A stretch of 62,441 bases of DNA. It comes from Eubacteriales bacterium. Its GTDB lineage: Bacteria > Bacillota > Clostridia > Oscillospirales > CAG-272. The notes under the pieces were generated by a model that made no database searches, had not been told where the DNA came from, and worked only from the letters and a program-made list of their open reading frames with translations. Positions 1,022 to 50,469 of the stretch are shown here, in pieces. The number at the start of each line of letters is the position of its first letter. The stretch's first letter is position 1. Location: the NCBI GenBank assembly GCA_045538685.1, contig JAZSRX010000006.1, forward strand, positions 1 through 62,441. The letters run 5' to 3'. Position numbers and translations under genes: made by a program.

Positions 1022-2241
1022 TATTTAAGCAAGAACTTGTTAAAGCTCTTCTTTCCTCTCTTAACGAGAATACCTGTCGCAAGCTGATCCTTTGTGATCA
1101 TAGCACGAACATCAGTAACCTTTTCACCGTCAACAGAAACCCCGCCTTGTTCGATAGCACGTCTGCCCTCGGATTTAGAGGGAACCATTTTGCCAAGAAC
1201 AAGCAGACTGTTAAGATCTATCGCACCGTCAATAAGCGAGCTTTCTTCAACTTCAACAACAGGAGCATTTTCAGCACCGCCCGATACGAACAGAGAACGA
1301 GCCATTGCCTGTGCCTTTTCGGCTTCCTCGTCGCCGTGAACAAGCTTTGTAAGCTCAAATGCAAGAATTTCCTTAGCTGTGTTAAGCTGAGCACCTTCCC
1401 AGGAGTCCATCTTATCAATTTCTTCAACAGGAAGGAAAGTAAGCATTCTTATACATTTAAGAACGTCTGCATCAGCAACATTTCTCCAGTACTGGTAGAA
1501 ATCGTAGGGAGCAGTCTTGTTAGGATCAAGCCAAACCGCACCCGATGCGGTCTTACCCATCTTCTTGCCCTCGGAGTTGAGGAGCAGGGTAATAGTCATT
1601 GCGTGTGCATCCTTACCAAGCTTACGTCTGATAAGCTCAGTACCGCCAAGCATATTAGACCACTGGTCGTCACCGCCGAACTGCATATTACAGCCGTATT
1701 CCTTGAAGAGGTGGTAGAAGTCGTAGGACTGCATTATCATGTAGTTGAATTCAAGGAAGGAAAGGCCCTTTTCCATTCTCTGCTTGTAGCACTCAGCAGA
1801 GAGCATTCTGTTTACAGAGAAGCAAGCACCAACGTCACGAAGCACGTCAACGTAATTAAGGCCGAGAAGCCAGTCTGCGTTGTTTACAAGAATTGCCTTG
1901 CCTTCGCCAAAGTCGATGAATCTTTCCATCTGCTTTCTGAAGCAGTCAACATTGTGCTGAATTGTTTCGGTTGTCATCATCTGACGCATATCGGTTCTGC
2001 CGGAAGGGTCACCAACCATAGCAGTTCCGCCACCGATAAGCACAACGGGCTTGTTACCTGCCATCTGAAGTCTCTTCATAAGGCAGAGAGCCATAAAGTG
2101 ACCAACGTGCAGAGAGTCTGCAGTAGGGTCAAATCCGATGTAGAAGGTCGCTTTACCTTCGTTTATCATAGTTCTGATCTCTTCTTCGTTAGTTACCTGG
2201 GCGATCAGTCCGCGGGCAACCAGTTCCTCATAGATTTTCAT
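1021..2241 (-). CDS. tyrS: Tyrosine--tRNA ligase
   Basis: FYIGFDPTADSLHVGH (HIGH), QFGGDDQWSN, KMGKT and a C-terminal S4 domain. Confidence 0.98.
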   Translation of the reverse strand: MKIYEELVARGLIAQVTNEEEIRTMINEGKATFYIGFDPTADSLHVGHFMALCLMKRLQMAGNKPVVLIGGGTAMVGDPSGRTDMRQMMTTETIQHNVDCFRKQMERFIDFGEGKAILVNNADWLLGLNYVDVLRDVGACFSVNRMLSAECYKQRMEKGLSFLEFNYMIMQSYDFYHLFKEYGCNMQFGGDDQWSNMLGGTELIRRKLGKDAHAMTITLLLNSEGKKMGKTASGAVWLDPNKTAPYDFYQYWRNVADADVLKCIRMLTFLPVEEIDKMDSWEGAQLNTAKEILAFELTKLVHGDEEAEKAQAMARSLFVSGGAENAPVVEVEESSLIDGAIDLNSLLVLGKMVPSKSEGRRAIEQGGVSVDGEKVTDVRAMITKDQLATGILVKRGKKSFNKFLLK

Positions 2242-2274
2242 TGTTTTTACCTCTATATATTATTTTTGAACACA

Positions 2275-2588
2275 AATAAAAAAGTCCTCGGAGAAAAACT
2301 CCAAGGACGCAAAAAACGTGGTACCACCTTGATTTGTAAAGTGCAGGGTGCACCTCATCCACCGCCATAGGCGGTCCCCCTTCCCCAACAGGGAAGGCAT
2401 TGTGCAGAATGCAGAATTACCTCATTTACGCTGTAACGGGCGTGAACCGTCGTGCCCTACACACTTCAGAAAGAAGCTTCAACACGCACTCAGAGATGTA
2501 TTTGCAAACGGAAACTCATGTGCCTCTCATCACCCGGCAACTTTCTGTTTTGCGTTATCCGTCGCTACTTGTTCTCGTCATCGCTTTA
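2275..2588 (-). promoter_or_regulatory. T-box riboswitch (Tyr) upstream of tyrS
   Basis: T-box AAGGTGGTACCACG, terminator GTCCTTGGAG...CTCCGAGGAC-TTTT, stem I with GGTGATGAGA and specifier TAC at 2498-2500; promoter TTGACA(2627-2622)-17-TATAAT(2604-2599). Confidence 0.93.
2351..2398. repeat. Short GC-rich double-hairpin (REP-like) insert inside the T-box leader
   Basis: ACCGCCATAGGCGGT and CCTTCCCCAACAGGGAAGG palindromes, flanked by GTGCAG on both sides. Confidence 0.55.
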
Positions 2589-2709
2589 TTACCACATAAT
2601 TATACAGTAAAAAAACACAAATGTCAACAGTTTTATTGACATTTTTCTTATATTGTGATACAATTAATTAGCTAAATACAAATTACTAAATTAATTAACG
2701 AGGTATGAT

Positions 2710-4014
2710 ATGAAAAAGCTTATTTGTCTTCTGTTAATCGTAATATCATTGGTGACAACATTAACTTCTTGTGAATTGCTTGTTGTAGCTTTGGTCGGTC
2801 CTGCTTTCAAAACCGAAACAACAGTAGTTAACGGAGTAGAGTATAAATGTCAAGGTAAAGTAAAAAAAGCGGATTCTTTTTGGGTTTCCGGACTTGCCGA
2901 CAAAAGTCTTACAAATGTAGTAATTGAACCTACAATAAATGGTAAACCGGTTACAAAAATTGCAAGTATGGCTTTTTCTAGTTGTGAACAGATTAAATCT
3001 GTTATTATCCCCGAAGGTATTACGTCAATTGAACACTATGCATTTTCCGATTGCACCGGTCTTACAAGTATTGAAATTCCTAAAAGTGTTACACGCATTG
3101 ATTCATATGAAATATTTATGGGTGTATCAGATCGTTATGGAGCTTTTCATGGTTGCATAAATCTTGTTGAAGTTATAAATCATTCTTCTTTGGAAATCAC
3201 TGTAGGTGGCAAAGATAATGGTCAGATAGCAGAGTATGCAATAGGTGTTCACACCGGTGAGAGTAAACTGTTGGAAAAAGACGATTATCTTTTCTATATG
3301 GATGAAGATGCAAATTATTTAGCGAGATATTTTGGTAGTGAAACCGAACTTGTTCTTCCTGAAAACTGCAACGGCGAAAATTATATAATAGACAATCACG
3401 CGTTTGTTTTTTTGAAGTTACTTACAAGTGTTACTATTCCCAATAGTGAAATTGGCATAGGTGATTATGTATTTTACAACTGTGAATCGCTTAAAAATAT
3501 TGAACTTCCGGAAGGATTAACAGAAATTCCCAAATCTGCATTTAGGGGTTGCCGTTCGCTTATAAGTATTAACATTCCCGATAGTGTAATCGGCTTAGGT
3601 GATTATGCATTTTACAACTGTGAATCGCTTAAAAATATAGAACTTCCTGACGGAATAACTGAAATTCCGCAACACGCATTCGAGGGATGCCGTTCGCTTA
3701 CAAGTATTAACATTCCCGATAGTGTAATCGGCTTAGGTGATTATGCATTTTACAACTGTGAATCGCTTAAAAATATAGAACTTCCTGATGGAATAACAGA
3801 AATTCCACAATCTGCATTCGAGGGATGCCGTTCGCTTACAAGCATTATTATTCCTGATAGTGTAATTCGTTTCGGGGTTTCTGCCTTTTCTGGTTGTGAA
3901 TTTATTACCGACGTATATTATAAAGGCAGCGAAGCTCAGTGGATAAAGATTGAGAGTAATTACTTAGACCATATAGAGAACGTTACTATTCATTATGATT
4001 ATATTCCCGAATAA
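2710..4014 (+). CDS. BspA-like leucine-rich-repeat lipoprotein
   Basis: Lipobox LTSC; repeated AFxxCxxLxxIxIPxxVxxI units; promoter TTGACA-17-TACAAT at 2636-2664. Confidence 0.9.
   Translation: MKKLICLLLIVISLVTTLTSCELLVVALVGPAFKTETTVVNGVEYKCQGKVKKADSFWVSGLADKSLTNVVIEPTINGKPVTKIASMAFSSCEQIKSVIIPEGITSIEHYAFSDCTGLTSIEIPKSVTRIDSYEIFMGVSDRYGAFHGCINLVEVINHSSLEITVGGKDNGQIAEYAIGVHTGESKLLEKDDYLFYMDEDANYLARYFGSETELVLPENCNGENYIIDNHAFVFLKLLTSVTIPNSEIGIGDYVFYNCESLKNIELPEGLTEIPKSAFRGCRSLISINIPDSVIGLGDYAFYNCESLKNIELPDGITEIPQHAFEGCRSLTSINIPDSVIGLGDYAFYNCESLKNIELPDGITEIPQSAFEGCRSLTSIIIPDSVIRFGVSAFSGCEFITDVYYKGSEAQWIKIESNYLDHIENVTIHYDYIPE
3421..3867 (+). repeat. 138-bp tandem repeat (about 3.2 units) within the LRR gene
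   Basis: Units start at 3421, 3559, 3697 and 3835 with near-identical DNA; each encodes two LRRs (46 aa). Confidence 0.9.
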
Positions 4015-4020
4015 TACAAA

Positions 4021-4058
4021 AATGGCAGAGAGTTAAAAAGCTCTCTGCCATTTTTTTT
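4021..4058. terminator. Intrinsic terminator between convergent genes
   Basis: AATGGCAGAGAG / CTCTCTGCCATT stem followed by a T run. Confidence 0.85.
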
Positions 4059-4109
4059 GAAAAAATCTGATTGTTCTAAGGACATCTGTTTGGCAATATG
4101 TTATGTGAA

Positions 4110-5132
4110 TTAAGTAGTTGATGCATTATCAAAAGGGAAAACTTCATAGACAGTAGTCTGTCTATAAACCTCTCCTGCCTTGTAGAAGCCAACACCCTGA
4201 TTAATACAGTTCGGCTCGGTTTGTGCTTCAAGGCAGAATGCACCGTGCTTGATTTTTTTTACACCGCCTCTGAAATCAGGACCGCCTTCCAGGAAATTAC
4301 CGGTGTAGAACTGTACTCCGGGCTGGTCTGTATAGACATTGAGAACAAGTTTTTTGTTAGTAACCTGTGCAGCCAAGGGAAGATTAAAATCTTTAAATTT
4401 TGTATATAAATCGGGGCAGAGCACGAAATTGTGATCATACCCGTCAATATCTTTACCAAAATCTTCACCGATTTTCTTTGGTGTCTTGAAATCAAAAGCA
4501 GTGCCATTTACACGCGGTCTATTACCCGTTGGGATAAGATTATCTCCAACCTCGGTATAACAATCTGCCCATATTGTAGCTATGTGATTGTCAATAACTC
4601 CGCCAAAGCCGTCAAGGTTGAAATAGGAATGATTTGTCAATGCGATAGGAGTTTTTCCGTCGGGAGTTGCCTCGTATTCGATCATAATGGCGGTGTCAAT
4701 AAGAGTGAATTTCACCTTTGACATAAGTCCTGCGGGGAAGCCCTCTTCGCCATCGGGAGAATAGTAGGAAAGGGTAACACTGTCCTCTGTAAGCTCTTCA
4801 ATATTCCAGATACGGAAGCTGAAGCCGTCACCGCCGTGCAGACAATTTCCGTTGTCATTATCTGTCAGCATATAAATAGCTCCATCCATAGTAAAACTTG
4901 CGTCTTTTATTCTGTTTGCCACACGACCGACGGTTGCACCTTGATATGAGCCGGTGTCTGCTTCGTAACTGCAAAGCTCGTCGTATCCGCCAATTATATC
5001 AACGCCAAAGGGCTTAAAGGAAACGATAGTCGCACCGCGCGTCATAACTCTAAGCTCTGCGTTATTGTTTTTTAACGTAATAAGTTCTACATTCTCTCCG
5101 CTTTTTGTCCTGCCGAATATCTCTCGCTTCAT
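4110..5132 (-). CDS. galM: Aldose 1-epimerase (galactose mutarotase)
   Basis: GRVANRI, LHGG, LTNHSYFNL, YDHNF, TDQPGVQFYTGN and CLEAQ motifs. Confidence 0.95.
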   Translation of the reverse strand: MKREIFGRTKSGENVELITLKNNNAELRVMTRGATIVSFKPFGVDIIGGYDELCSYEADTGSYQGATVGRVANRIKDASFTMDGAIYMLTDNDNGNCLHGGDGFSFRIWNIEELTEDSVTLSYYSPDGEEGFPAGLMSKVKFTLIDTAIMIEYEATPDGKTPIALTNHSYFNLDGFGGVIDNHIATIWADCYTEVGDNLIPTGNRPRVNGTAFDFKTPKKIGEDFGKDIDGYDHNFVLCPDLYTKFKDFNLPLAAQVTNKKLVLNVYTDQPGVQFYTGNFLEGGPDFRGGVKKIKHGAFCLEAQTEPNCINQGVGFYKAGEVYRQTTVYEVFPFDNASTT

Positions 5133-5311
5133 AATTTACCTCCAAAAAGAGTGATTATCACATTGATTATAACCCATTTATCAAAAAAAGTAAATAGTAA
5201 AGTTGAATTATGATCACAAAAAAATTTTATAAATTTTCTTTTAGACTAGTTCGTTGACAATAAAGTTTTTTTGTGATAAAATGTGGTATGTTCAAAAAAA
5301 GGGGAGAGTTT

Positions 5312-6013
5312 ATGTTCGAAGCATACAATATACTTGATCTTACGGTGTCTGCTGTTGATAATATTAGAAATACAATAGAAGAGAGCGGAAATGTCGTTGG
5401 ACCAATATTCTTTTTAGGAATAATAGTGGGAATTTTAGTATCTTATATCGTTTTTTCTATTTGGTGGCTCATAAAATCAAGAAAAAAACATATAACAGAA
5501 ACTCCTAAAGAAGCAACAATTATCGAATATGAAAATAAAGAAGAAACAGAAATTCACGACGAAATTGAAGAAAAACAAGATGATGACTCTGTCGGTTTAG
5601 GAACTTTTTTGGTCACTATAATCGTATTTTCTTTATTGATTACTATTTTTGTTACTTTTGGTATGTTAAACAATGTTGGTGATAAATCTGAAGGTTCAGT
5701 TGTAGATCTTTTTTCTAAAAAAGCATCAAATGATGACATAGAAGCAGATTATGAGTTGGTTCCAACTGGATTCACTGAGGCAAAAATTCAAGCTAAATTT
5801 CAAGTCAATGAAAAAATAAAAAACCTTGTTGTAAGAGTTTATGTTTATAATGAGAGTGGAAAATTGGTTATTGATGAAAAGGTTAATATTGGGAACGCCA
5901 CTCCCGGAAATGAATATGTGAGATATATCTCTTTGTCCGGATTTTCTCTTTCAGAAATGTTTGATTTTGATAAAATAAAAACAGAAGTAGTTCAAGGAAC
6001 TATTTCCAAATAA
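5312..6013 (+). CDS. Hypothetical membrane protein (2 TM helices, acidic loop, C-terminal soluble domain)
   Basis: ATG after GGGGAG RBS; two hydrophobic stretches; AT-rich. Confidence 0.7.
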   Translation: MFEAYNILDLTVSAVDNIRNTIEESGNVVGPIFFLGIIVGILVSYIVFSIWWLIKSRKKHITETPKEATIIEYENKEETEIHDEIEEKQDDDSVGLGTFLVTIIVFSLLITIFVTFGMLNNVGDKSEGSVVDLFSKKASNDDIEADYELVPTGFTEAKIQAKFQVNEKIKNLVVRVYVYNESGKLVIDEKVNIGNATPGNEYVRYISLSGFSLSEMFDFDKIKTEVVQGTISK

Positions 6014-6051
6014 CAAAAGCTCACTTGAAATAGCGAGCTTTTGTTATTTTT
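6009..6051 (+). terminator. Intrinsic terminator
   Basis: AATAACAAAAGCTC / GAGCTTTTGTTATT stem followed by a T run. Confidence 0.75.
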
Positions 6052-6130
6052 ATGCATAGCATTTCTCCTTGACTTTATTTAAAATATATGATATCATATA
6101 AGTTGAACTAAAATAAGGCAGGTTGTTTTT

Positions 6131-6640
6131 ATGAACAAGGCAGTCATTATAATAAACGGAGCCGGCGGAGTAGGCAAGGACACTATCTGCGACCTGGCGG
6201 CTAAGCACTTTAAGGTGCGCAACATTTCATCGGTTGACCCTATTAAGGAGATCGCTACATTCTGTGGCTGGACAGGCGTTAAGGATGACAGAGCGAGAAA
6301 GTTCCTTCACGATCTCAAGACCATAACTGCAGAGTACAATGATTTCCCCACTAACTGGGCGCTGAACGTTTTTCGTCAGTTCCTTACCAATGATGAGGAA
6401 ATTCTTTTCGTACATATCAGAGAGCCCTGGGAAATTGAAAAGTTTGTTAAGGCGACCGAGGGGGTTGCAAAAACCCTGCTTGTAAGAGGCGGATCTCGCA
6501 GCAGAACCGGTGCATACGGTAACGCGGCTGACGATATGGTTGAAAACTATGAGTACGATTATTATTTCGTAAATGACCGTCCTCTCGATGAAACAGAGCA
6601 GAATGTAAAAGCACTTTTTAGCGAAATACTTAATAAATAA
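6131..6640 (+). CDS. P-loop protein, nucleoside monophosphate kinase-like
   Basis: N-terminal Walker A IINGAGGVGKDT; LFVHIREP and YDYYFVN segments resemble dNMP-kinase-like proteins. Confidence 0.6.
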   Translation: MNKAVIIINGAGGVGKDTICDLAAKHFKVRNISSVDPIKEIATFCGWTGVKDDRARKFLHDLKTITAEYNDFPTNWALNVFRQFLTNDEEILFVHIREPWEIEKFVKATEGVAKTLLVRGGSRSRTGAYGNAADDMVENYEYDYYFVNDRPLDETEQNVKALFSEILNK

Positions 6641-6661
6641 TTTGTCAAAACGGAGGCAAAT

Positions 6662-8983
6662 ATGATTAAAGTAAGCGATCAGCTCTTTAAGCTTGAAACG
6701 AAGAACACAACCTATGCTTTCCGAATAAATGAGGGCTACCTTGAGCATCTTTATTACGGACGCCGAGTTGTTGATACCGATTTTACTGCATCGGCTCTTA
6801 AAAATACCATTGACCTCGGTTCTACCGTAAAAACAGAGGGAAGCAAGTTCTTTCTTGAAAGAAACCTTCTCGAATACTCGGGCATTGGCAGAGGCGATTA
6901 CCGCCACAGCCCCATAGAGCTTCTTATGCCCGACGGAACCTTTGTAAGTGACTTTGTATATGAAAGCCACAAAATTATAGCTTCGGCTTATTCAGCCGAC
7001 GGTCTTCCCACTGCATACGGCGAGGCACAGACTCTTGAAATTGTTTTAAAAGATAAAAAGTTCAGTGATATAAAGTTGAAGCTTAATTATGTTGTATTTG
7101 AAGAGTGCGACGTGATTTGCCGTAATGCCTCGCTTATCAACAATAACGAAAATCCCGTTTTCATTCGCAAGTTTATGAGCTTTATGATGGATCTTCCCGA
7201 GGCGGATTATGATATGCTGACTCTTGACGGAGATTGGGGCAAAGAAGCTCACGAACACCGTCGATTCCTCGAATGCGGCATACTTGTAAACGAGTCTACC
7301 GTCGGTGCCTCTTCTAATAAGCATAATCCCGCATTTGCCCTTATGGAAAAAGGGGCCGACGAGTCACGCGGTAAGGTTTACGGCTTTAATCTTATTTATA
7401 GCGGAAATCATTATTCGGCTGTTGAACGCTCAACCTTTGATACCGCACGTGTTATGTCGGGTATAAGTCCTCACTGCTTCCTTTGGAAGCTTAAAGAGGG
7501 AGAAAGCTTTGTCACACCCCAAGCGGTGATGACCTATTCGCCTGACGGTTTAAACACTATGATGGCGAATATGCACGACTTTGTAAATAATCATATAGTT
7601 CGCGGTGAGCATAAAGATGCAGACCGACCCATTGTTTTAAATAACTGGGAAGCAACTTTTTTCAATTTTAACCGAAGCAAGGTCCTAGCACTTGCAAGGT
7701 CGGCAAAAAAGCTAGGAATTGAGATGTTTGTCCTTGATGACGGTTGGTTCGGTAAGAGAAACAGCGATCTTGCAGGTCTTGGCGACTGGGTAGAAAATCG
7801 CAAGAAGCTTCCGGGCGGAATAAAATATATAGCCAACAAGGTAAACAAAATGGGAATGAAGTTCGGTCTTTGGTTTGAGCCCGAATGTGTCAATCCCGAC
7901 AGCGACCTTTACCGTGCTCATCCTGATTGGGCAATAAGCATAGAGGGCAGAGAACTAACCCTTGGAAGAAATCAGCTTGTACTTGATCTTACTCGCAAAG
8001 AAGTGCGTGAGTACATAATTGAAAGTGTGGACAAGGTTCTGAGGGGATCTAACATCGAGTATGTAAAGTGGGACTATAACCGACACATCAGCGATATGTA
8101 TTCTTCCTCCCTGAAACAGCAGGGCGAATTTTTCCACAGATATATTCTCGGCCTTTATGAAGTGCTTGAAGAAATATTCTTTAAAAGACATCCGAAGATT
8201 CTGTTTGAAAGCTGTTCCTCGGGTGGAAACCGTTTTGATCTTGGAATGCTTTGTTTCTCACCGCAGATATGGACGTCAGATAACACCGACCCCATAGAGC
8301 GACTTGATATTCAGGGTGGAATTTATAACTTCTATCCGCAGTCAACAGTATCTGCCCACGTGTCTATGGCACCCCACGCACAGACTCTCAGAGACACTCC
8401 GCTTTCCACCAGATTTAATGTTGCCGCCTTCGGTGTGCTCGGATACGAGCTTGATTTTTCTGAGCTTACACCCGAGGAACGCAGGCAGGTGAAAAGGCAG
8501 ATTGCCTTTTACAAAGAGCATCGCAGAAGCTTCCAGTACGGTAGACTGAAAAAAGTAAAACTTAAAAATGCGGATGAAATTTCTTGGCAGATTACCGACG
8601 TCGACAAAACATATGCCGCAATCTACCAAAAATACAAGGCCGCTTGTCCAGGACGTGACCGACTTGATGTTCCCGGACTTGATCCCGAGAAGATGTACTC
8701 GGTTGAGTCGAGAGATCAATATCTTCGCATCAGTCGTTTCGGCGGTCTGGTTAAGCACATTATTCCTGTTCATTTAAAGCCGGATGGATTTATTCTTCGA
8801 ACCGTAAATAAGCATTTTGCAATGAAAGACGGGAAAGAGAATTATATCGCCTCTGGTGCTATGCTTTCAGAGGGCATAAATCTTGCTATGCAATATGAGG
8901 GCTCGGGATACGATCCGAACCTGAGAATTCTTGGCGACTATGGCTCAAGTCTTTATTTAATAAAGGAGAAAAACAATGGATAA
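6662..8983 (+). CDS. Alpha-galactosidase, GH36
   Basis: NNWEATFF, FVLDDGWFG, FGLWFEPE, YVKWDYNR, CSSGGNRFD and WTSDNTD motifs. Confidence 0.95.
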   Translation: MIKVSDQLFKLETKNTTYAFRINEGYLEHLYYGRRVVDTDFTASALKNTIDLGSTVKTEGSKFFLERNLLEYSGIGRGDYRHSPIELLMPDGTFVSDFVYESHKIIASAYSADGLPTAYGEAQTLEIVLKDKKFSDIKLKLNYVVFEECDVICRNASLINNNENPVFIRKFMSFMMDLPEADYDMLTLDGDWGKEAHEHRRFLECGILVNESTVGASSNKHNPAFALMEKGADESRGKVYGFNLIYSGNHYSAVERSTFDTARVMSGISPHCFLWKLKEGESFVTPQAVMTYSPDGLNTMMANMHDFVNNHIVRGEHKDADRPIVLNNWEATFFNFNRSKVLALARSAKKLGIEMFVLDDGWFGKRNSDLAGLGDWVENRKKLPGGIKYIANKVNKMGMKFGLWFEPECVNPDSDLYRAHPDWAISIEGRELTLGRNQLVLDLTRKEVREYIIESVDKVLRGSNIEYVKWDYNRHISDMYSSSLKQQGEFFHRYILGLYEVLEEIFFKRHPKILFESCSSGGNRFDLGMLCFSPQIWTSDNTDPIERLDIQGGIYNFYPQSTVSAHVSMAPHAQTLRDTPLSTRFNVAAFGVLGYELDFSELTPEERRQVKRQIAFYKEHRRSFQYGRLKKVKLKNADEISWQITDVDKTYAAIYQKYKAACPGRDRLDVPGLDPEKMYSVESRDQYLRISRFGGLVKHIIPVHLKPDGFILRTVNKHFAMKDGKENYIASGAMLSEGINLAMQYEGSGYDPNLRILGDYGSSLYLIKEKNNG

Positions 8984-44281: not shown

Positions 44282-44563
44282 TTAAATTCTCACCTCGTCT
44301 TCAACCACATAACTAAGATCGATGGGAGTGACAAGATTTCTCACCAGCATTTCAAAGAACTCTACAGCACGAAATTTATCTGTAAAAACATCTGTTGCTT
44401 CTTTTTGGCTGAAATGCCCCCGGCTGTCCTCGATTGAAACTCTTACCGAATAAAGAGGAAGTCTCCAATCGGCAGTACGTCTGCCTTCTCTCAGAATAAG
44501 TTCATATGTATAACGGTAAAATTCGTCCTGTCTTTCTTCTTTAATAACTATCTTTTCTTTCAT
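44282..44563 (-). CDS. Small hypothetical protein (DUF6514-like)
   Basis: C-terminal LVRNLVTPIDLSYVVED pattern; GGGGG RBS. Confidence 0.6.
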   Translation of the reverse strand: MKEKIVIKEERQDEFYRYTYELILREGRRTADWRLPLYSVRVSIEDSRGHFSQKEATDVFTDKFRAVEFFEMLVRNLVTPIDLSYVVEDEVRI

Positions 44564-45550: not shown

Positions 45551-45708
45551 AGGTTTTTCCTCCTGATGTTCATAATTTTACACCAATTTTGTAAAAAAGT
45601 CAAATTTTTACTGTGAAAAGTTTGTAAATAATTGATTTTCATATAGACAAAGAGGTTATTTTTTGATAAAATTATGTTAATGATATTATTAAAAAGGTGG
45701 ATATAAAA

Positions 45709-46020
45709 ATGAAAGTTATTACTAAAGAAAATTTTAATAGCGAAATAGAAGAGTTCTCCGGTCTTGCGGTTATAGATCTTTATGCAGATTGGTGCGGCCC
45801 TTGCCGTATGCTTGCTCCTATACTTGCCGAGCTTGAGGATGAGTATCCCGAAGTAAAGTTCTGCAAAATCAACGTTGACGAACAGCCCGAGCTTGCAAAA
45901 GAGTTCAATGTTAAAAACATTCCTATGGTTGCCTTTGTAAAGAATAATGTTTTTGCCGATGTTTCCGTTGGTTATGTTCCCAAGGACGTGCTCAAAAAGC
46001 TTGTGGAGGCAAATAAATGA
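45709..46020 (+). CDS. Thioredoxin
   Basis: WCGPC active site and cis-Pro IP motif. Confidence 0.95.
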   Translation: MKVITKENFNSEIEEFSGLAVIDLYADWCGPCRMLAPILAELEDEYPEVKFCKINVDEQPELAKEFNVKNIPMVAFVKNNVFADVSVGYVPKDVLKKLVEANK

Positions 46021-46214
46021 AAATAAGATATAACGAGGACAAGGAGATCGTTGCCGCTGTTAAAGAAGGGCTGAAACGGTCAGGCGGATACTGTCCCTGC
46101 AGATTTGAACGTACAGAAGAAAACAAATGTATGTGCAAGGAATTCCGCGAACAGATAGCCGACGAAAATTATGAGGGCTACTGTCATTGTTACCTTTATT
46201 ACAAGGAAAAATAA
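46017..46214 (+). CDS. Ferredoxin:thioredoxin reductase catalytic-subunit-like protein
   Basis: YCPC...CMC...CHC.LY pattern; overlaps the thioredoxin stop. Confidence 0.85.
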   Translation: MKIRYNEDKEIVAAVKEGLKRSGGYCPCRFERTEENKCMCKEFREQIADENYEGYCHCYLYYKEK

Positions 46215-46254
46215 ACTTTAATAACACTTATTTTGTAGCTTTTTCTCACATATT

Positions 46255-46282
46255 GCCGCCATTGATAAATGGCGGCTTTTTT
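46255..46282 (+). terminator. Intrinsic terminator
   Basis: GCCGCCATT / AATGGCGGC followed by TTTTTT. Confidence 0.8.
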
Positions 46283-46390
46283 ATGTCGCATATTACCGAT
46301 ATCTTAACACCCGATTGGCTTGAAGAATATTGCTCCAAATGGTATAATACCACTAACCTATTGGAAAATTATGGTAATTTGGAGGAGAAA

Positions 46391-49300
46391 ATGAGAAAAA
46401 CAATTATAGTCACAGTCCTTTTCGTATTGCTTATTTTCGCAATGACGGGAGTGGTAAATGCCGAGGAAAATGTTGCCTCGTCTCAGACGGTAAGCTCGCT
46501 TAGTGTATATACCTACCCAAGCAAAACGGTTTACGGAGCTTTTGAGAGGTTTGATACCTCGGGGCTATCTCTTCGTGCTGTTTTTTCGGACGGAAGCGAA
46601 AAAATACTAAGCGGACAGGATATTCGGGTTTCTTACAGCAAGGATAATTGCTTTCGCGTAGGAGATGATTCGGTTATGCTTTCGTATGGCGGAAAGGAAA
46701 TTTCCATTCCCATTACCGTTAACCGTATTGCATATGATATTTCATCTCTTGATCTTAGTGAATTTTCAACCGTATTTAACGGTGTATATCAGAGCTATAA
46801 CCGTTCTGTTATACAGATTGTCGGTCTTGACGGAATAGCTCTTACGATAAAAATATCCGGCGGTGGAATAAATGTGGGAGTATACGATATTAATATTGAT
46901 TTTTCCACAGAAAGCTCCGACTACTTAACCCCCGAGAGCAGAGTCATTTCTATGACGATAGAGCCCGCAACAAGTGAGATTATATGGGAAACTTTGTCTT
47001 TCGTCTATGATGGAAAAAGCAAAACTCCCACAGCATATTATATTGATGTAAACGGAGCAAGAGTTTACCCGACGGTTAACGGCGGAGCAACTAATGCAGG
47101 CAGCGGTTATTTAGCCAGAGTAACGGTAAGTGATCCTAACTATAAGTTTTCAAACACCTCGGTAAATTATGAGATAAAGAAAGCCGATTACGATTTTTCC
47201 GGGGTAAGCTGGAGCAAGGACAGCTTTACTTATGACGGCAGCACAAAAAGCATCAGTGCCACAGGACTTCCACCCGGGGTGAGTATTATTGGATACAGCG
47301 GAGATCGGGGAAGCGAATCGGGAATATATACCGCCACAGCAATTTTGATGTGGGATGAGAATAATTACAACTCGCCCCCTCCTCTTACTCATACCTGGGA
47401 AATTAAAAAGGCGGAATACGATATATCGGGAGTTAGCTTCCGCAGCGAAAGCTTTATTTTTGATGGTATGATGCATTATCCCACCTTGGTTGGTTCAATG
47501 CCTGTGGGTGCAGACGGAATAGCTCTTGAATACAGCTTTTCAGCAGGTGCCTGCCACGTAGCAGACGGTACGGTTTCTGTTGTTATAAACTTCCATACCG
47601 CAAGTACAAATTATAATCTTCCCGAACCTCTTTATTCAAGTGTAAGCATTACTCCATGTGGAATAAATATTATCTGGGGAGAAACAAAGCTTTCTTATAA
47701 CGGAGAAGAGCAGACTCCTTTGGCATATGCTGAGGAGTGTCTTATTACGGTAAGGGGTTCGGCAATTAATACAGGGAAATACGTTGCCACCGCGACTACA
47801 GAAAATACCGATTATTATATTAAAAATGACAAAATAGAATTTAGCATAATCAAAGCACAGAACTACTGGACTGTTTTGCCTGCCGATTCTGTGTGCTATG
47901 AAGGAAAGGAAATAAATATTACAGGCGAGTCAAAATTCGGAGATGTTGTTATCAGATTTTTCGCTGATAAAGATTGTAACGAGGAAATTTCTCTTCCTAC
48001 TGCATGCGGAAAATATTACGCAATTCTTTCTGTATCCGAAAGCGAGAATTTTGGCGGCTTGATTTCTGATGTCATATCCTTCGAAATTGTGGAGATTGTA
48101 GCAGTATCTTTTCTGGGCGGAATAATAAAGGACAATATAAAGGCATTTGAAAAGCTGGGGAGTGGAGATTTTCTCTGTTCGGTATTAAATAACGACGGAA
48201 GTGTCAGTGTTGTGGATTCTTCGCTTGTAAGTGTTATTTATCAAGAGGGAGATTCATTCAGGAAAAACGACAAATGGGTAAAGCTTCAATACGGAAGCTT
48301 TGTTTTAACTCTGTCTGTAAATGTCGGATATGCGGATTATGATATGTCGGGAGTGGTCTGGCTGAACACTACACAGATATACAATGGCTCAGCTCTTATG
48401 CCACAGCTTAGCGGTTTGCCAAGCGGAGTTAGTGTTAGCGAATATATAGGAACAAATAATATAAATGCGGGCTCTTATACCGTAAGTGCAAAGCTTAATT
48501 ATGACAGAGAGAATTACAACGAGCCAAAGCTTTCTTCCTGTATTTTCACAATAGAGAAATGTCCTGTTAATATTCCAATCTTTACCACAGTATATAATGG
48601 AAAAGGGCAGCATCCCGTTTCGGATTCTCTTTTATATACGGTTGTTTCGGGAGATGAATATATTAATTCCGGAACATATACGGTTTCTGTAAGAATAAAT
48701 GATACGGCAAACTATTGTTTTGCGGAAAACTCAGGCGATAATGCAAATGCAATTTTCCAAATAAACCCTGCCACCGTTTATGTTACTGTAAAGGACACAA
48801 AGCTCAAGCTTTTTGAAAAACTCTCCGATGTGGAATATATCATAACATCGGGAACGGTATATGAAAATGATATATTGACAGTATCGTCAATACGAGAGGG
48901 AAAGAATGTTACTGTTCGCTCTGAAAACCCAAATTACAGTATTATTGCCACCCCGGGTAAAATAATACGTTTGGCCTATCCCACAGCAGGCGGTGCTGTT
49001 ATTATGGCACTGATATTGTTGGGTGTAGTATTGATTGTATTAATCGCCGGGGCGGTTTACCGTAACAGACAGCATATTGTCAGCAGGGCAGCGATGGCGA
49101 AATGTAAATGGCATAACAGAGAGTATAAAGCTCCTCCGCCAAGAGAGGATTTGACATCGATATTAAGATACGATCCGCCTGTCAATAAAAATGATGATGC
49201 TTTTGTCGAGGATGAGGAAAGCGATTTTGAAGAAACAAAAGAGACGGAAGAGCCATTGCCTACCGATCCCGAAATTGATGAGGAAACAGGAACAATTGGT

Positions 49301-49648
49301 TATGATGTGAATATGGAGAAAGCAGATTCGCTTATTTCAGACTCTCTTGCAAAAAGTCTCATCAGGCGAGAGGGAGAGATGATCTGCACAGACGGTGACG
49401 AAAGGGCAACAATTGAAGTGGGAACACTGAGTAATGCCTTTAATCCGGGTGACCGTGTTGACGTTAATTCGCTTAAAGAGAAGGGAATTATTTCAAATGA
49501 AGTTGCTTATATCAAGATAATAGGAGGAGGCAACATTAATAAACCACTATCTGTATTTGCCAATGATTTCAACCTTTCCGCTGTAAAGATGATTGCACTT
49601 TGCGGAGGGGAGGCAACGAAAATTTTTACTTTTAAAGGCAGATCATAA
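46391..49648 (+). CDS. 1085-aa single-pass membrane protein: signal peptide, Ig-like/MBG-like repeats, TM helix, acidic linker, C-terminal uL15-like domain
   Basis: GGAGG RBS; promoter TTGAAG-17-TATAAT at 46321-46349; signal peptide ending VNA-E; PSKTVY..FDTSGL and YDG/NAGxY repeats; TM at about 48992-49060; C-terminal IKIIGGGNINKPLSVFANDFNLSAVKMIALCGG. Confidence 0.85.
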   Translation: MRKTIIVTVLFVLLIFAMTGVVNAEENVASSQTVSSLSVYTYPSKTVYGAFERFDTSGLSLRAVFSDGSEKILSGQDIRVSYSKDNCFRVGDDSVMLSYGGKEISIPITVNRIAYDISSLDLSEFSTVFNGVYQSYNRSVIQIVGLDGIALTIKISGGGINVGVYDINIDFSTESSDYLTPESRVISMTIEPATSEIIWETLSFVYDGKSKTPTAYYIDVNGARVYPTVNGGATNAGSGYLARVTVSDPNYKFSNTSVNYEIKKADYDFSGVSWSKDSFTYDGSTKSISATGLPPGVSIIGYSGDRGSESGIYTATAILMWDENNYNSPPPLTHTWEIKKAEYDISGVSFRSESFIFDGMMHYPTLVGSMPVGADGIALEYSFSAGACHVADGTVSVVINFHTASTNYNLPEPLYSSVSITPCGINIIWGETKLSYNGEEQTPLAYAEECLITVRGSAINTGKYVATATTENTDYYIKNDKIEFSIIKAQNYWTVLPADSVCYEGKEINITGESKFGDVVIRFFADKDCNEEISLPTACGKYYAILSVSESENFGGLISDVISFEIVEIVAVSFLGGIIKDNIKAFEKLGSGDFLCSVLNNDGSVSVVDSSLVSVIYQEGDSFRKNDKWVKLQYGSFVLTLSVNVGYADYDMSGVVWLNTTQIYNGSALMPQLSGLPSGVSVSEYIGTNNINAGSYTVSAKLNYDRENYNEPKLSSCIFTIEKCPVNIPIFTTVYNGKGQHPVSDSLLYTVVSGDEYINSGTYTVSVRINDTANYCFAENSGDNANAIFQINPATVYVTVKDTKLKLFEKLSDVEYIITSGTVYENDILTVSSIREGKNVTVRSENPNYSIIATPGKIIRLAYPTAGGAVIMALILLGVVLIVLIAGAVYRNRQHIVSRAAMAKCKWHNREYKAPPPREDLTSILRYDPPVNKNDDAFVEDEESDFEETKETEEPLPTDPEIDEETGTIGYDVNMEKADSLISDSLAKSLIRREGEMICTDGDERATIEVGTLSNAFNPGDRVDVNSLKEKGIISNEVAYIKIIGGGNINKPLSVFANDFNLSAVKMIALCGGEATKIFTFKGRS

Positions 49649-49668: not shown

Positions 49669-49769
49669 TTGAAAAAATACGGCTTCTGTGTTAAAATTAA
49701 CCTATGGCCTATTTTAAAGATAATAAACTGTATCGGAGGTCAAAACTGACCTCCGATTTTTTGAGGTAA
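49669..49769 (+). promoter_or_regulatory. Promoter plus terminator-like leader with a 21-codon uORF before rluA
   Basis: TTGAAA-17-TAAAAT with extended TG; ATG at 49704; hairpin ATCGGAGGTCA/TGACCTCCGAT followed by T6. Confidence 0.55.
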
Positions 49770-49770
49770 T

Positions 49771-50469
49771 ATGATAGAAATCGTTAGCAAAACACGAGAT
49801 TATGTTGTTATTTATAAACCTGCCGGTATGCCTTCTCAATCCGATCCCAGCGGTGATAAGGATGCAATGACGGCTTGCAGCGAGCTTCTTCGCGAGAGCG
49901 GAGAGTCGGACGAACTATTTCTTATTCACCGTCTTGACCGCGTAGTTGGCGGTCTTTTGGTTTTCGCAAGAAATAAAAAAAGTGCAGCTGCCCTTTCGGA
50001 GCAGGTTGCAAATCGGAAGCTAATAAAAGAGTATTATGCCGTTGTTGAAGGATGCCCGGCGGGCGGTACAATGCAGGATTATCTTTATAAGGATGCAGCA
50101 TTGGGAAAGGCATTTATTAGCGACAGAAAACGTGCGGGAGTTAAAATGTGTGAGCTTGAATACGTTGTTTTTGATACCGTAAGTATTGGTGAACGTGATG
50201 TCTCCTTGGTAAAAATCTCTCTCAAAACAGGAAGATTTCATCAGATAAGAGCACAGTTCTCACATCGCAAAATGCCATTAATCGGAGATAAAAAATACGG
50301 CAGTCGTGATTTTAGGGCAAAAATGCCATCTCTTTTTGCTTCGCTTTTGTCATTTACTTACGGAGGTAAAGAAATCGCGGTTTCAAAGCTTCCTGAGCTT
50401 TCAAATTACCCCTGGTCACTATTTACGGAAGAAAAATACAAGCAGAACGGAAAACATTATGACCGATAA
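49771..50469 (+). CDS. RluA-family pseudouridine synthase
   Basis: KPAGMPSQ, HRLDRVVGG, TGRFHQIR and GDKKYG motifs. Confidence 0.93.
   Translation: MIEIVSKTRDYVVIYKPAGMPSQSDPSGDKDAMTACSELLRESGESDELFLIHRLDRVVGGLLVFARNKKSAAALSEQVANRKLIKEYYAVVEGCPAGGTMQDYLYKDAALGKAFISDRKRAGVKMCELEYVVFDTVSIGERDVSLVKISLKTGRFHQIRAQFSHRKMPLIGDKKYGSRDFRAKMPSLFASLLSFTYGGKEIAVSKLPELSNYPWSLFTEEKYKQNGKHYDR

Follow-up and report, generated by a model that had tools for sequence, protein, structure and literature searches.

A uL15-like module at the predicted cytoplasmic end of surface proteins in an uncultured genus of gut Clostridia

The DNA analysed here, hereafter the window, is a stretch of 62,441 nucleotides on contig JAZSRX010000006.1 (assembly GCA_045538685.1) of a Eubacteriales bacterium in the Clostridia lineage CAG-272, and our subject is one gene on its forward strand, at positions 46391-49648, which encodes a protein of 1085 residues (P0001). 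This protein joins a known kind of surface protein to a known fold, that of the C-terminal domain of ribosomal protein uL15, in an undescribed combination. A sequence-only reading of the window had proposed an undescribed system at this locus, and we likewise found no description of an architecture of surface protein, transmembrane (TM) helix and uL15-like module in the literature that we searched. uL15 is a universal, single-copy ribosomal protein, and to our knowledge no use of its fold outside the ribosome has been described.

Anatomy of the gene and its protein

The open reading frame (ORF) lister gives the long frame as 46187-49648 (+). We assign the biological start to the ATG at 46391, because it is preceded by the ribosome-binding site GGAGGAG (46381-46387, +; 3 nt upstream) and opens a typical signal peptide. 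This peptide occupies residues 1-24 (MRKTIIVTVLFVLLIFAMTGVVNA; 46391-46462, +, the strand of all protein features given below), and an N-terminal signal-like hydrophobic segment is present in 137 of the 155 complete-looking relatives longer than 500 residues. It is followed by a predicted extracellular all-beta stalk (residues 25-866; 46463-48988) of Big_3 and MBG_3-type repeats, which Pfam recognises at residues 42-110 for Big_3 (22.9 bits, cut-off 21.2) and in three stretches for MBG_3 (26.6 bits, cut-off 25). A full-length AlphaFold (AF2) model, with 32 orthologues in the alignment and a mean predicted local distance difference test (pLDDT) score of 77.8, renders residues 33-859 as all-beta with pLDDT mostly 75-90, and the ectodomain thus modelled measures about 830 residues.

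The stalk ends at a single TM helix (residues 867-890; 48989-49060; Kyte-Doolittle 3.17), and the model places helices at residues 878-891 and 893-907. The sequence after the TM helix is RNRQHIVSRAAMAKCKWHNREYK, and its basic juxtamembrane segment (residues 891-918; 49061-49144), which marks the cytoplasmic side, holds eight lysines or arginines between R891 and R918 and contains a conserved KC(K/R)WHNR motif; R910 is invariant in the family, while R893, A901, C905, R906 and P917 are conserved at 90% or more. Our topology script was run on 201 family proteins (P0001 and P0002 excluded) and placed the module in 198 of them, 187 of which have a strong hydrophobic helix at most 320 residues upstream of it. 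Net charge in the family is +4.6 in the 25 residues after this helix versus +0.9 in the 15 residues before it, and the charge after exceeds the charge before in 166 of the 187. Because the TM helix is followed by basic residues, the C-terminus should be cytoplasmic according to the positive-inside rule, and the predicted topology accordingly puts the C-terminal domain inside the cell, not outside. No LPXTG motif occurs in the translated sequence, whose part beyond the TM helix is about 195 residues long, and the NCBIfam model EF0750_LPXTG gives a sub-threshold match (17.1 bits, cut-off 47) confined to residues 1-44, i.e. the signal-peptide end only.

The membrane-proximal segment leads into an acidic, disordered and non-conserved linker (residues 919-971; 49145-49303), where the model drops to a pLDDT of about 30 and where all of residues 916-970 stay below 50. 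Across the family, the linker has a mean net charge of -8.4 and a length of 30-196 residues (median 61). When orthologues of about 1085 residues are compared with P0001, it is the worst-conserved region (13% identity), whereas the module core beyond it is the best-conserved one (64%). The parts that had been read from the letters, i.e. a signal peptide, a long ectodomain of beta repeats, one TM helix with the C-terminus inside and an acidic linker, are hence all recovered.

The protein ends in a conserved unit of about 110 residues. Residues 972-1081 are confidently folded in the full-length model, and the similarity to relatives sets in near residue 972 (position 20 or so of the 133-residue tail), upstream of where the Pfam domain begins. 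The unit opens with a family-specific part (residues 972-1007; 49304-49411) that comprises, in the alignment and the AF2 model, two short helices (VDxExADxLI(S/T)DSLAKxL) and a beta strand. It continues with a core like the uL15 C-domain (residues 1008-1076; 49412-49618) and closes with an extra C-terminal beta strand, modelled at residues 1074-1081, and a short basic tail (residues 1077-1085 plus stop codon; 49619-49648). In 151 of the 201 family proteins the residues behind the module carry a net positive charge, and the module also holds three invariant lysines, K1029, K1051 and K1066, described as surface residues. The uL15-like end noticed in the sequence-only reading is therefore real, but the conserved module is larger than the 70 residues assumed there and includes family-specific additions.

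Relationship of the module to uL15

The C-terminal sequence that had been likened to uL15 is located at residues 1006-1078, and the search of this end against Pfam Ribosomal_L27A (PF00828) aligned residues 1008-1076 with positions 2-72 of the profile's 72 (36.4 bits, gathering cut-off 21.5, E = 6.9e-9). The same family scores 40.8 bits on the 133-residue tail alone and 41.5 bits in the genome search. A profile made from an alignment of 32 tails (A1) and run against all PDB sequences returned only uL15 and eL18 chains, 44 of them at E <= 0.01, with Enterococcus uL15 as the best match (6o8w_M, E = 2.5e-12, chain residues 74-142 of 146). For the last 133 residues AF2 gives a model with a pLDDT of 89.9 and a predicted template modelling score of 0.78, and a Foldseek comparison of this model with the PDB shows ribosomal uL15 or eL18-type chains in all 50 matches listed, 18 of them at E <= 0.001. 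Superposition of the predicted model on these chains gives a root-mean-square deviation (rmsd) of 1.2-2 A over 71-75 columns at 34-38% identity, the tightest fit being that to 5o60_M (71 columns, rmsd 1.2 A, 34% identity). Moreover, the module core aligns colinearly, at 32-40% identity and with a single one-residue indel, with the C-domains of canonical uL15 from 12 genomes within the order. The first helix of the module also lines up with the uL15 N-terminus, but only because the alignment is global; we discarded this pairing, in which there is no real identity. The evidence from sequence profiles, structure and direct alignment all starts from the same sequences; judged by these sequences and by the predicted model, the likeness to uL15 is real, and the module seems to descend from the globular C-terminal domain of this ribosomal protein.

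Nevertheless, the protein is not rplO, as the tests of equivalog score, N-terminal extension and operon all failed. The NCBIfam rplO model (TIGR01071) reaches 33.8 bits on the whole protein and 38.6 bits on the tail, against a cut-off of 77.95, and matches only with its C-terminal half (about positions 71-143 of 144). Canonical uL15 carries a strongly basic, Gly/Arg-rich N-terminal extension of about 55-70 residues which the module lacks, as the sequence-only reading had noted: in the alignment with 12 canonical uL15 proteins the family is gapped over the whole GRG...GGQ(M/L)P segment. The N-terminal part of these 12 proteins has a net charge of +11 to +13, in contrast to a mean of -0.5 for that of the module, while the module core (mean +1.3) falls within the range of canonical C-domains (-1 to +5). 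Canonical uL15 is also a free-standing protein of about 146 residues encoded in the spc operon beside secY, whereas the module has added helices and strands and forms the end of a 1085-residue membrane protein encoded elsewhere.

What is shared with rplO is the sequence family and fold of the C-domain, including the KVL-G-x-G ... GG positions. The K of KVL is kept in 96% of family proteins and the G of GxG, the K of DKPL and the GG end in 100%, and the N of INV is also retained among the structural signature positions. In the last uL15 helix, by contrast, SAKEKIEAAGG has become SAVKMIALTGG, invariant or nearly so in the family, by which charged residues are turned into hydrophobic ones, and the KK of uL15 is replaced by KP.

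Distribution of the family and setting of the gene

The module defines a two-paralogue family that is confined almost entirely to one uncultured genus of gut Clostridia. The tail, used as query in a word-indexed search, retrieved 62 proteins of 596-1899 residues, all with PF00828 and most also with MBG_3, Big_3 or PF09479; two of the 62 carry source names, one of them being 'uL15 family ribosomal protein, partial [Clostridia bacterium]'. When 1.84 billion cluster representatives were searched exhaustively with HMMER, 1493 matched at E <= 1e-3 and 560 at E <= 1e-10, and the module lies at the extreme C-terminus in each of the 150 matches listed (proteins of 136-1795 residues). Species genomes contributed 285 confirmed stretches. 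The 80 stretches listed among them all come from uncultured gut metagenome-assembled genomes, many from ruminant hindgut and some from human gut, and are labelled nearly throughout as Clostridia, Eubacteriales, Oscillospiraceae or 'uncultured Ruminococcus sp.', with one Coriobacteriaceae. The window's own genus has the family in 159 of 213 genomes (50 of 74 high-quality ones), many with two or three matches, and an even draw across the 30 families of the order has it in 3 of 301 genomes; both counts include the window's assembly.

Two module-bearing genes, one of each paralogue class, are found in the window's assembly. Class A, to which the gene in the window belongs, scores 150-240 bits against A1 and has ectodomains of about 680 to about 1830 residues. 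The class B gene is on contig C36 (L001:1-1716, +), where it is cut by the contig end. Its PF00828 score exceeds that of the class A gene (55.6 against 41.5 bits), and it has a basic GRRRKGK loop. Complete class B proteins of 1966-2637 residues occur elsewhere (L097, -, 1561-8790 on the reverse complement; L098:1410-9323; L099:1348-7248), and each has a large ectodomain between a signal peptide and a TM helix; EEAPV-type acidic/proline repeats then extend over hundreds of residues before a cytoplasmic domain, conserved and about 200 residues long (YRSSFMSRLIQ...KYHF...), a further acidic linker and the same module. The domain of about 200 residues belongs to no Pfam family, and a search of the ESM Atlas with it returned only 'hypothetical protein' clusters of Bacillota.

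An architecture of this kind might in principle arise from a misassembly or a gene-calling error that fuses a surface-protein gene to a fragment of rplO, a concern that the sequence-only reading had itself raised. The window's assembly is indeed fragmented (73 contigs, 80% complete) and has no separate rplO: profile searches with PF00828 and TIGR01071 found no canonical copy in it, and just two PF00828 matches, the class A and class B genes. However, the fusion is present in all 62 long database relatives, in all 150 cluster representatives listed, in the 285 stretches confirmed in species genomes and in 159 of the 213 genomes of the genus, and the module is just 32-40% identical to the canonical uL15 of the lineage. 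Furthermore, public runs yielded independent contigs that extend over the TM helix, linker and module (X1, 48793-49529; X2, 48700-49364; X4, 49101-49552). An artefact is excluded by the relatives with the same architecture and by these bridging contigs, and we give it a negligible probability. As for the missing rplO, secY was likewise not found in this assembly, and because of this and of the 80% completeness the contig with the spc operon region is probably absent from it. The notion that the organism lacks uL15 was rejected on the same two grounds and because 14 of 18 congeners have a normal rplO (about 146 residues, 65-78 bits, standard sequence), as do 12 of 12 genomes of other families. 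The expectation of a normal rplO elsewhere is thus borne out in the relatives, but not in the window's own assembly.

One contig of 3251 nt in the RNA-library run X5 agrees with the window solely at 49094-49118 and at 49768-49794, the 643 letters between these two stretches being unlike; rather than a splice or a deletion, it probably reflects a tail region that has diverged in a related strain or species. Contigs of RNA libraries cover parts of the gene (X5), although the occurrence of contigs in an RNA library is no proof of transcription.

The class A gene appears to form its own transcription unit, according to promoter-like and terminator-like consensus matches. A site resembling a promoter by consensus (TTGAAG-17-TATAAT with a TG extension, 10 of 12 matches; 46320-46348, +) agrees with the earlier claim of a promoter of its own. 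Upstream of it, a terminator-like hairpin with a T-run (46255-46276, +; nine pairs, six GC, TTTTTT tail) closes a thioredoxin/FTR-like unit, and a second one (11 pairs at 49732-49757, with its T-run to 49763, +) lies between the uL15-tail gene and the RluA-type pseudouridine synthase gene downstream. The neighbours encode thioredoxin, the FTR-like protein, the RluA-type synthase and an AlaX-like protein, so that the gene lies outside any ribosomal operon, as previously proposed. Adjacency to the RluA-type gene is conserved, but an operon link was rejected owing to the strong terminator-like hairpin between the two genes in the window; because of this hairpin, and because the syntenic loci all belong to close relatives, we do not count the adjacency as functional evidence. 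Another promoter-like site (TTGAAA-17-TAAAAT with TG; 49669-49697, +) is located between the stop codon and the hairpin at 49732-49757, just upstream of the RluA-type gene.

Several of these neighbours belong to a wider block, which around class A genes runs gpsA, DUF6514, acyl-ACP thioesterase, thioredoxin (with the FTR-like gene), the class A gene, sometimes a small membrane protein, RluA-type synthase, AlaX-like protein, dCMP deaminase and radical SAM. The order seen in the window recurs in most of 80 related loci, as judged by crude ORF calling with our own script. The small DUF6514 gene (44282-44563, -) is found in 22 of the 80 loci by crude ORF clustering. The thioredoxin gene (45697-46214, +) overlaps by four bases with a 65-residue Cys-rich ORF that scores 27.7 bits against PF02943, the catalytic chain of ferredoxin-thioredoxin reductase (FTR), and this pair terminates at the hairpin at 46255-46276.

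What the module may do

We tentatively favour, at somewhat less than an even chance, the view that the module is a docking domain on a tether and that its partner is the ribosome or RNA. P0001 is predicted to be a type-I single-pass surface protein of a monoderm gut Clostridia lineage, with an adhesin-like beta-sandwich stalk outside and a 'ball on a string' inside, in which the conserved module of about 110 residues hangs on a floppy acidic linker behind a short basic helix next to the membrane. The module would hold a cytoplasmic partner under the membrane, or hold the surface protein at the partner, for which 23S rRNA, the large subunit away from the site of the resident uL15, or a uL15-free assembly intermediate are candidates. 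The acidic leash, much longer in class B, may be repelled by the membrane and by nucleic acids. Sequence and model together suggest that this anatomy fits a tether better than an allosteric sensor, because a linker that is disordered, unconserved (13% against 64% identity) and anywhere from 30 to 196 residues long cannot carry a conformational signal; the 'extracellular sensor coupled to translation' of the sequence-only reading hence fits poorly.

A ribosomal or RNA partner is suggested by the uL15 ancestry of the module, by its retained signature lysines and by the mostly basic tails that follow it (151 of 201 proteins). Ribosomal-protein domains recruited elsewhere, such as S4, S1, KOW and L7Ae, usually remain RNA binders. 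We also count as a precedent the membrane tethering of 50S subunits in bacteria by YqjD, ElaB and YgaM, as described in the accessible part of one report (bioRxiv 10.1101/2024.08.16.608256). These Escherichia coli proteins would be functional analogues at most, each with a cytoplasmic part that holds a large subunit at the membrane, since there is no sequence relation and P0001 has no DUF883-type Pfam match. They are, according to the same part of that report, small and C-tail-anchored with nothing outside, whereas P0001 is a type-I protein with a signal peptide, an ectodomain of about 830 residues and a TM helix upstream of its cytoplasmic domain; and ribosome binding is established for them there, but only guessed for the uL15-tail protein. 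A bolder proposal, which we consider unlikely, is that of a ribosome receptor built from a ribosomal protein, in which the globular domain of uL15 would have been duplicated and put on a flexible leash at the inner end of the lineage's largest surface proteins, to give a membrane tether for large subunits or uL15-free precursors that would couple the sites of giant-adhesin display to translation or ribosome assembly. Its logic is comparable to that of mitochondrial mL45/Mba1.

Several observations speak against such a partner, which is a guess from ancestry. The most positively charged part of uL15 (its N-terminal part, +11 to +13) is missing, and the core that remains averages +1.3. On mature ribosomes of the relatives, the uL15 site should already be filled, because a canonical, full-length rplO is kept by 14 of 18 congeners and by all 12 genomes from other families. 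In the last uL15 helix, hydrophobic residues that are invariant or nearly so have taken the place of conserved charged ones, KK has changed to KP, and the helices and strands specific to the module may fit a new, possibly protein-binding, surface. Finally, the family is dispensable, since 54 of the 213 genomes of the genus do without it (24 of the 74 high-quality ones). A homodimer prediction for two copies of tail residues 18-133 with A1 gave no answer (score 0.00, mark 0.42) and counts neither way.

Some of these observations would be expected if the uL15 fold now served, unconnected with the ribosome, for docking to another protein, such that it would bind a conserved cytoplasmic protein or scaffold which positions, clusters or anchors the giant surface proteins. 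In our estimate this reading, likewise below an even chance, falls only a little behind that of a ribosomal or RNA partner. The family-specific additions to the fold, the invariant hydrophobic last helix in place of the charged uL15 helix, and the loss of the basic extension together with a modest net charge all favour it. So does the sharing of the module by two paralogue classes per genome (two in the window's assembly, two or three matches in many congeners), which might have a partner in common, and so does the conserved cytoplasmic domain of about 200 residues without Pfam family that class B adds. Against it, no candidate partner was identified, the conserved neighbours being housekeeping genes on separate transcription signals, and recruited ribosomal-protein domains, as said, generally keep binding RNA.

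A signalling device, in which a ligand outside causes clustering or regulated intramembrane proteolysis, so that the local concentration of the module changes or the module is released and acts on translation or another target, seems to us distinctly improbable. The layout of ectodomain, TM helix and effector does resemble that of the RsgI-type anti-sigma factors of Firmicutes, as far as the accessible part of the source describes them (bioRxiv 10.1101/2023.06.27.546760), and the juxtamembrane motif is conserved. However, the orientation with the C-terminus inside is opposite to that of RsgI, P0001 has no anti-sigma domain, and no protease, sigma factor or regulator gene is conserved beside the gene. 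The segment that would couple outside to inside is too variable and too disordered for conformational coupling, and the ectodomain consists of stalk- or adhesin-type repeats in which Pfam recognises no sensor domain. Still less probable is a passive anchor that stands in for sortase and LPXTG without any specific partner, where the folded knob and the basic stretch would fix the topology and stop the C-terminus from slipping through the membrane. The protein resembles Gram-positive adhesins with Big_3, MBG or Listeria-Bacteroides repeats in its signal peptide and beta-sandwich stalk (relatives also carry PF09479), but instead of an LPXTG motif or a wall-binding module it has a TM helix and a conserved folded cytoplasmic domain. 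The missing motif, the EF0750_LPXTG match below its cut-off and the constant position of TM helix and tail at the extreme C-terminus agree with a passive anchor. Yet a TM helix and a few basic residues suffice for anchoring, and the invariance of K1029, K1051 and K1066, the standing of the module as the best-conserved part of the protein and the long tethers of class B would be left unexplained.

Databases carry only the automatic name 'uL15 family ribosomal protein' for these membrane proteins, which misnames them. The mentions of PF00828 that we checked in the literature were, in the accessible parts of the sources, a typo-like match in a paper on extracytoplasmic function sigma factors, a marker-gene list and an operon figure legend. 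PF00828 serves as a single-copy marker gene (PMC10102025, accessible part), and because genomes of the genus carry one to three extra matches above the cut-off, marker-based estimates of contamination or genome counts may be inflated. In a large uncultured genus of herbivore and human gut Clostridia, giant surface proteins thus appear to have gained the globular domain of uL15 as their conserved cytoplasmic end. Were this module still to bind ribosomes or rRNA, bacteria would have a new way of tying translation to the envelope; otherwise, it would show clearly that a ribosomal fold can evolve towards a new partner.

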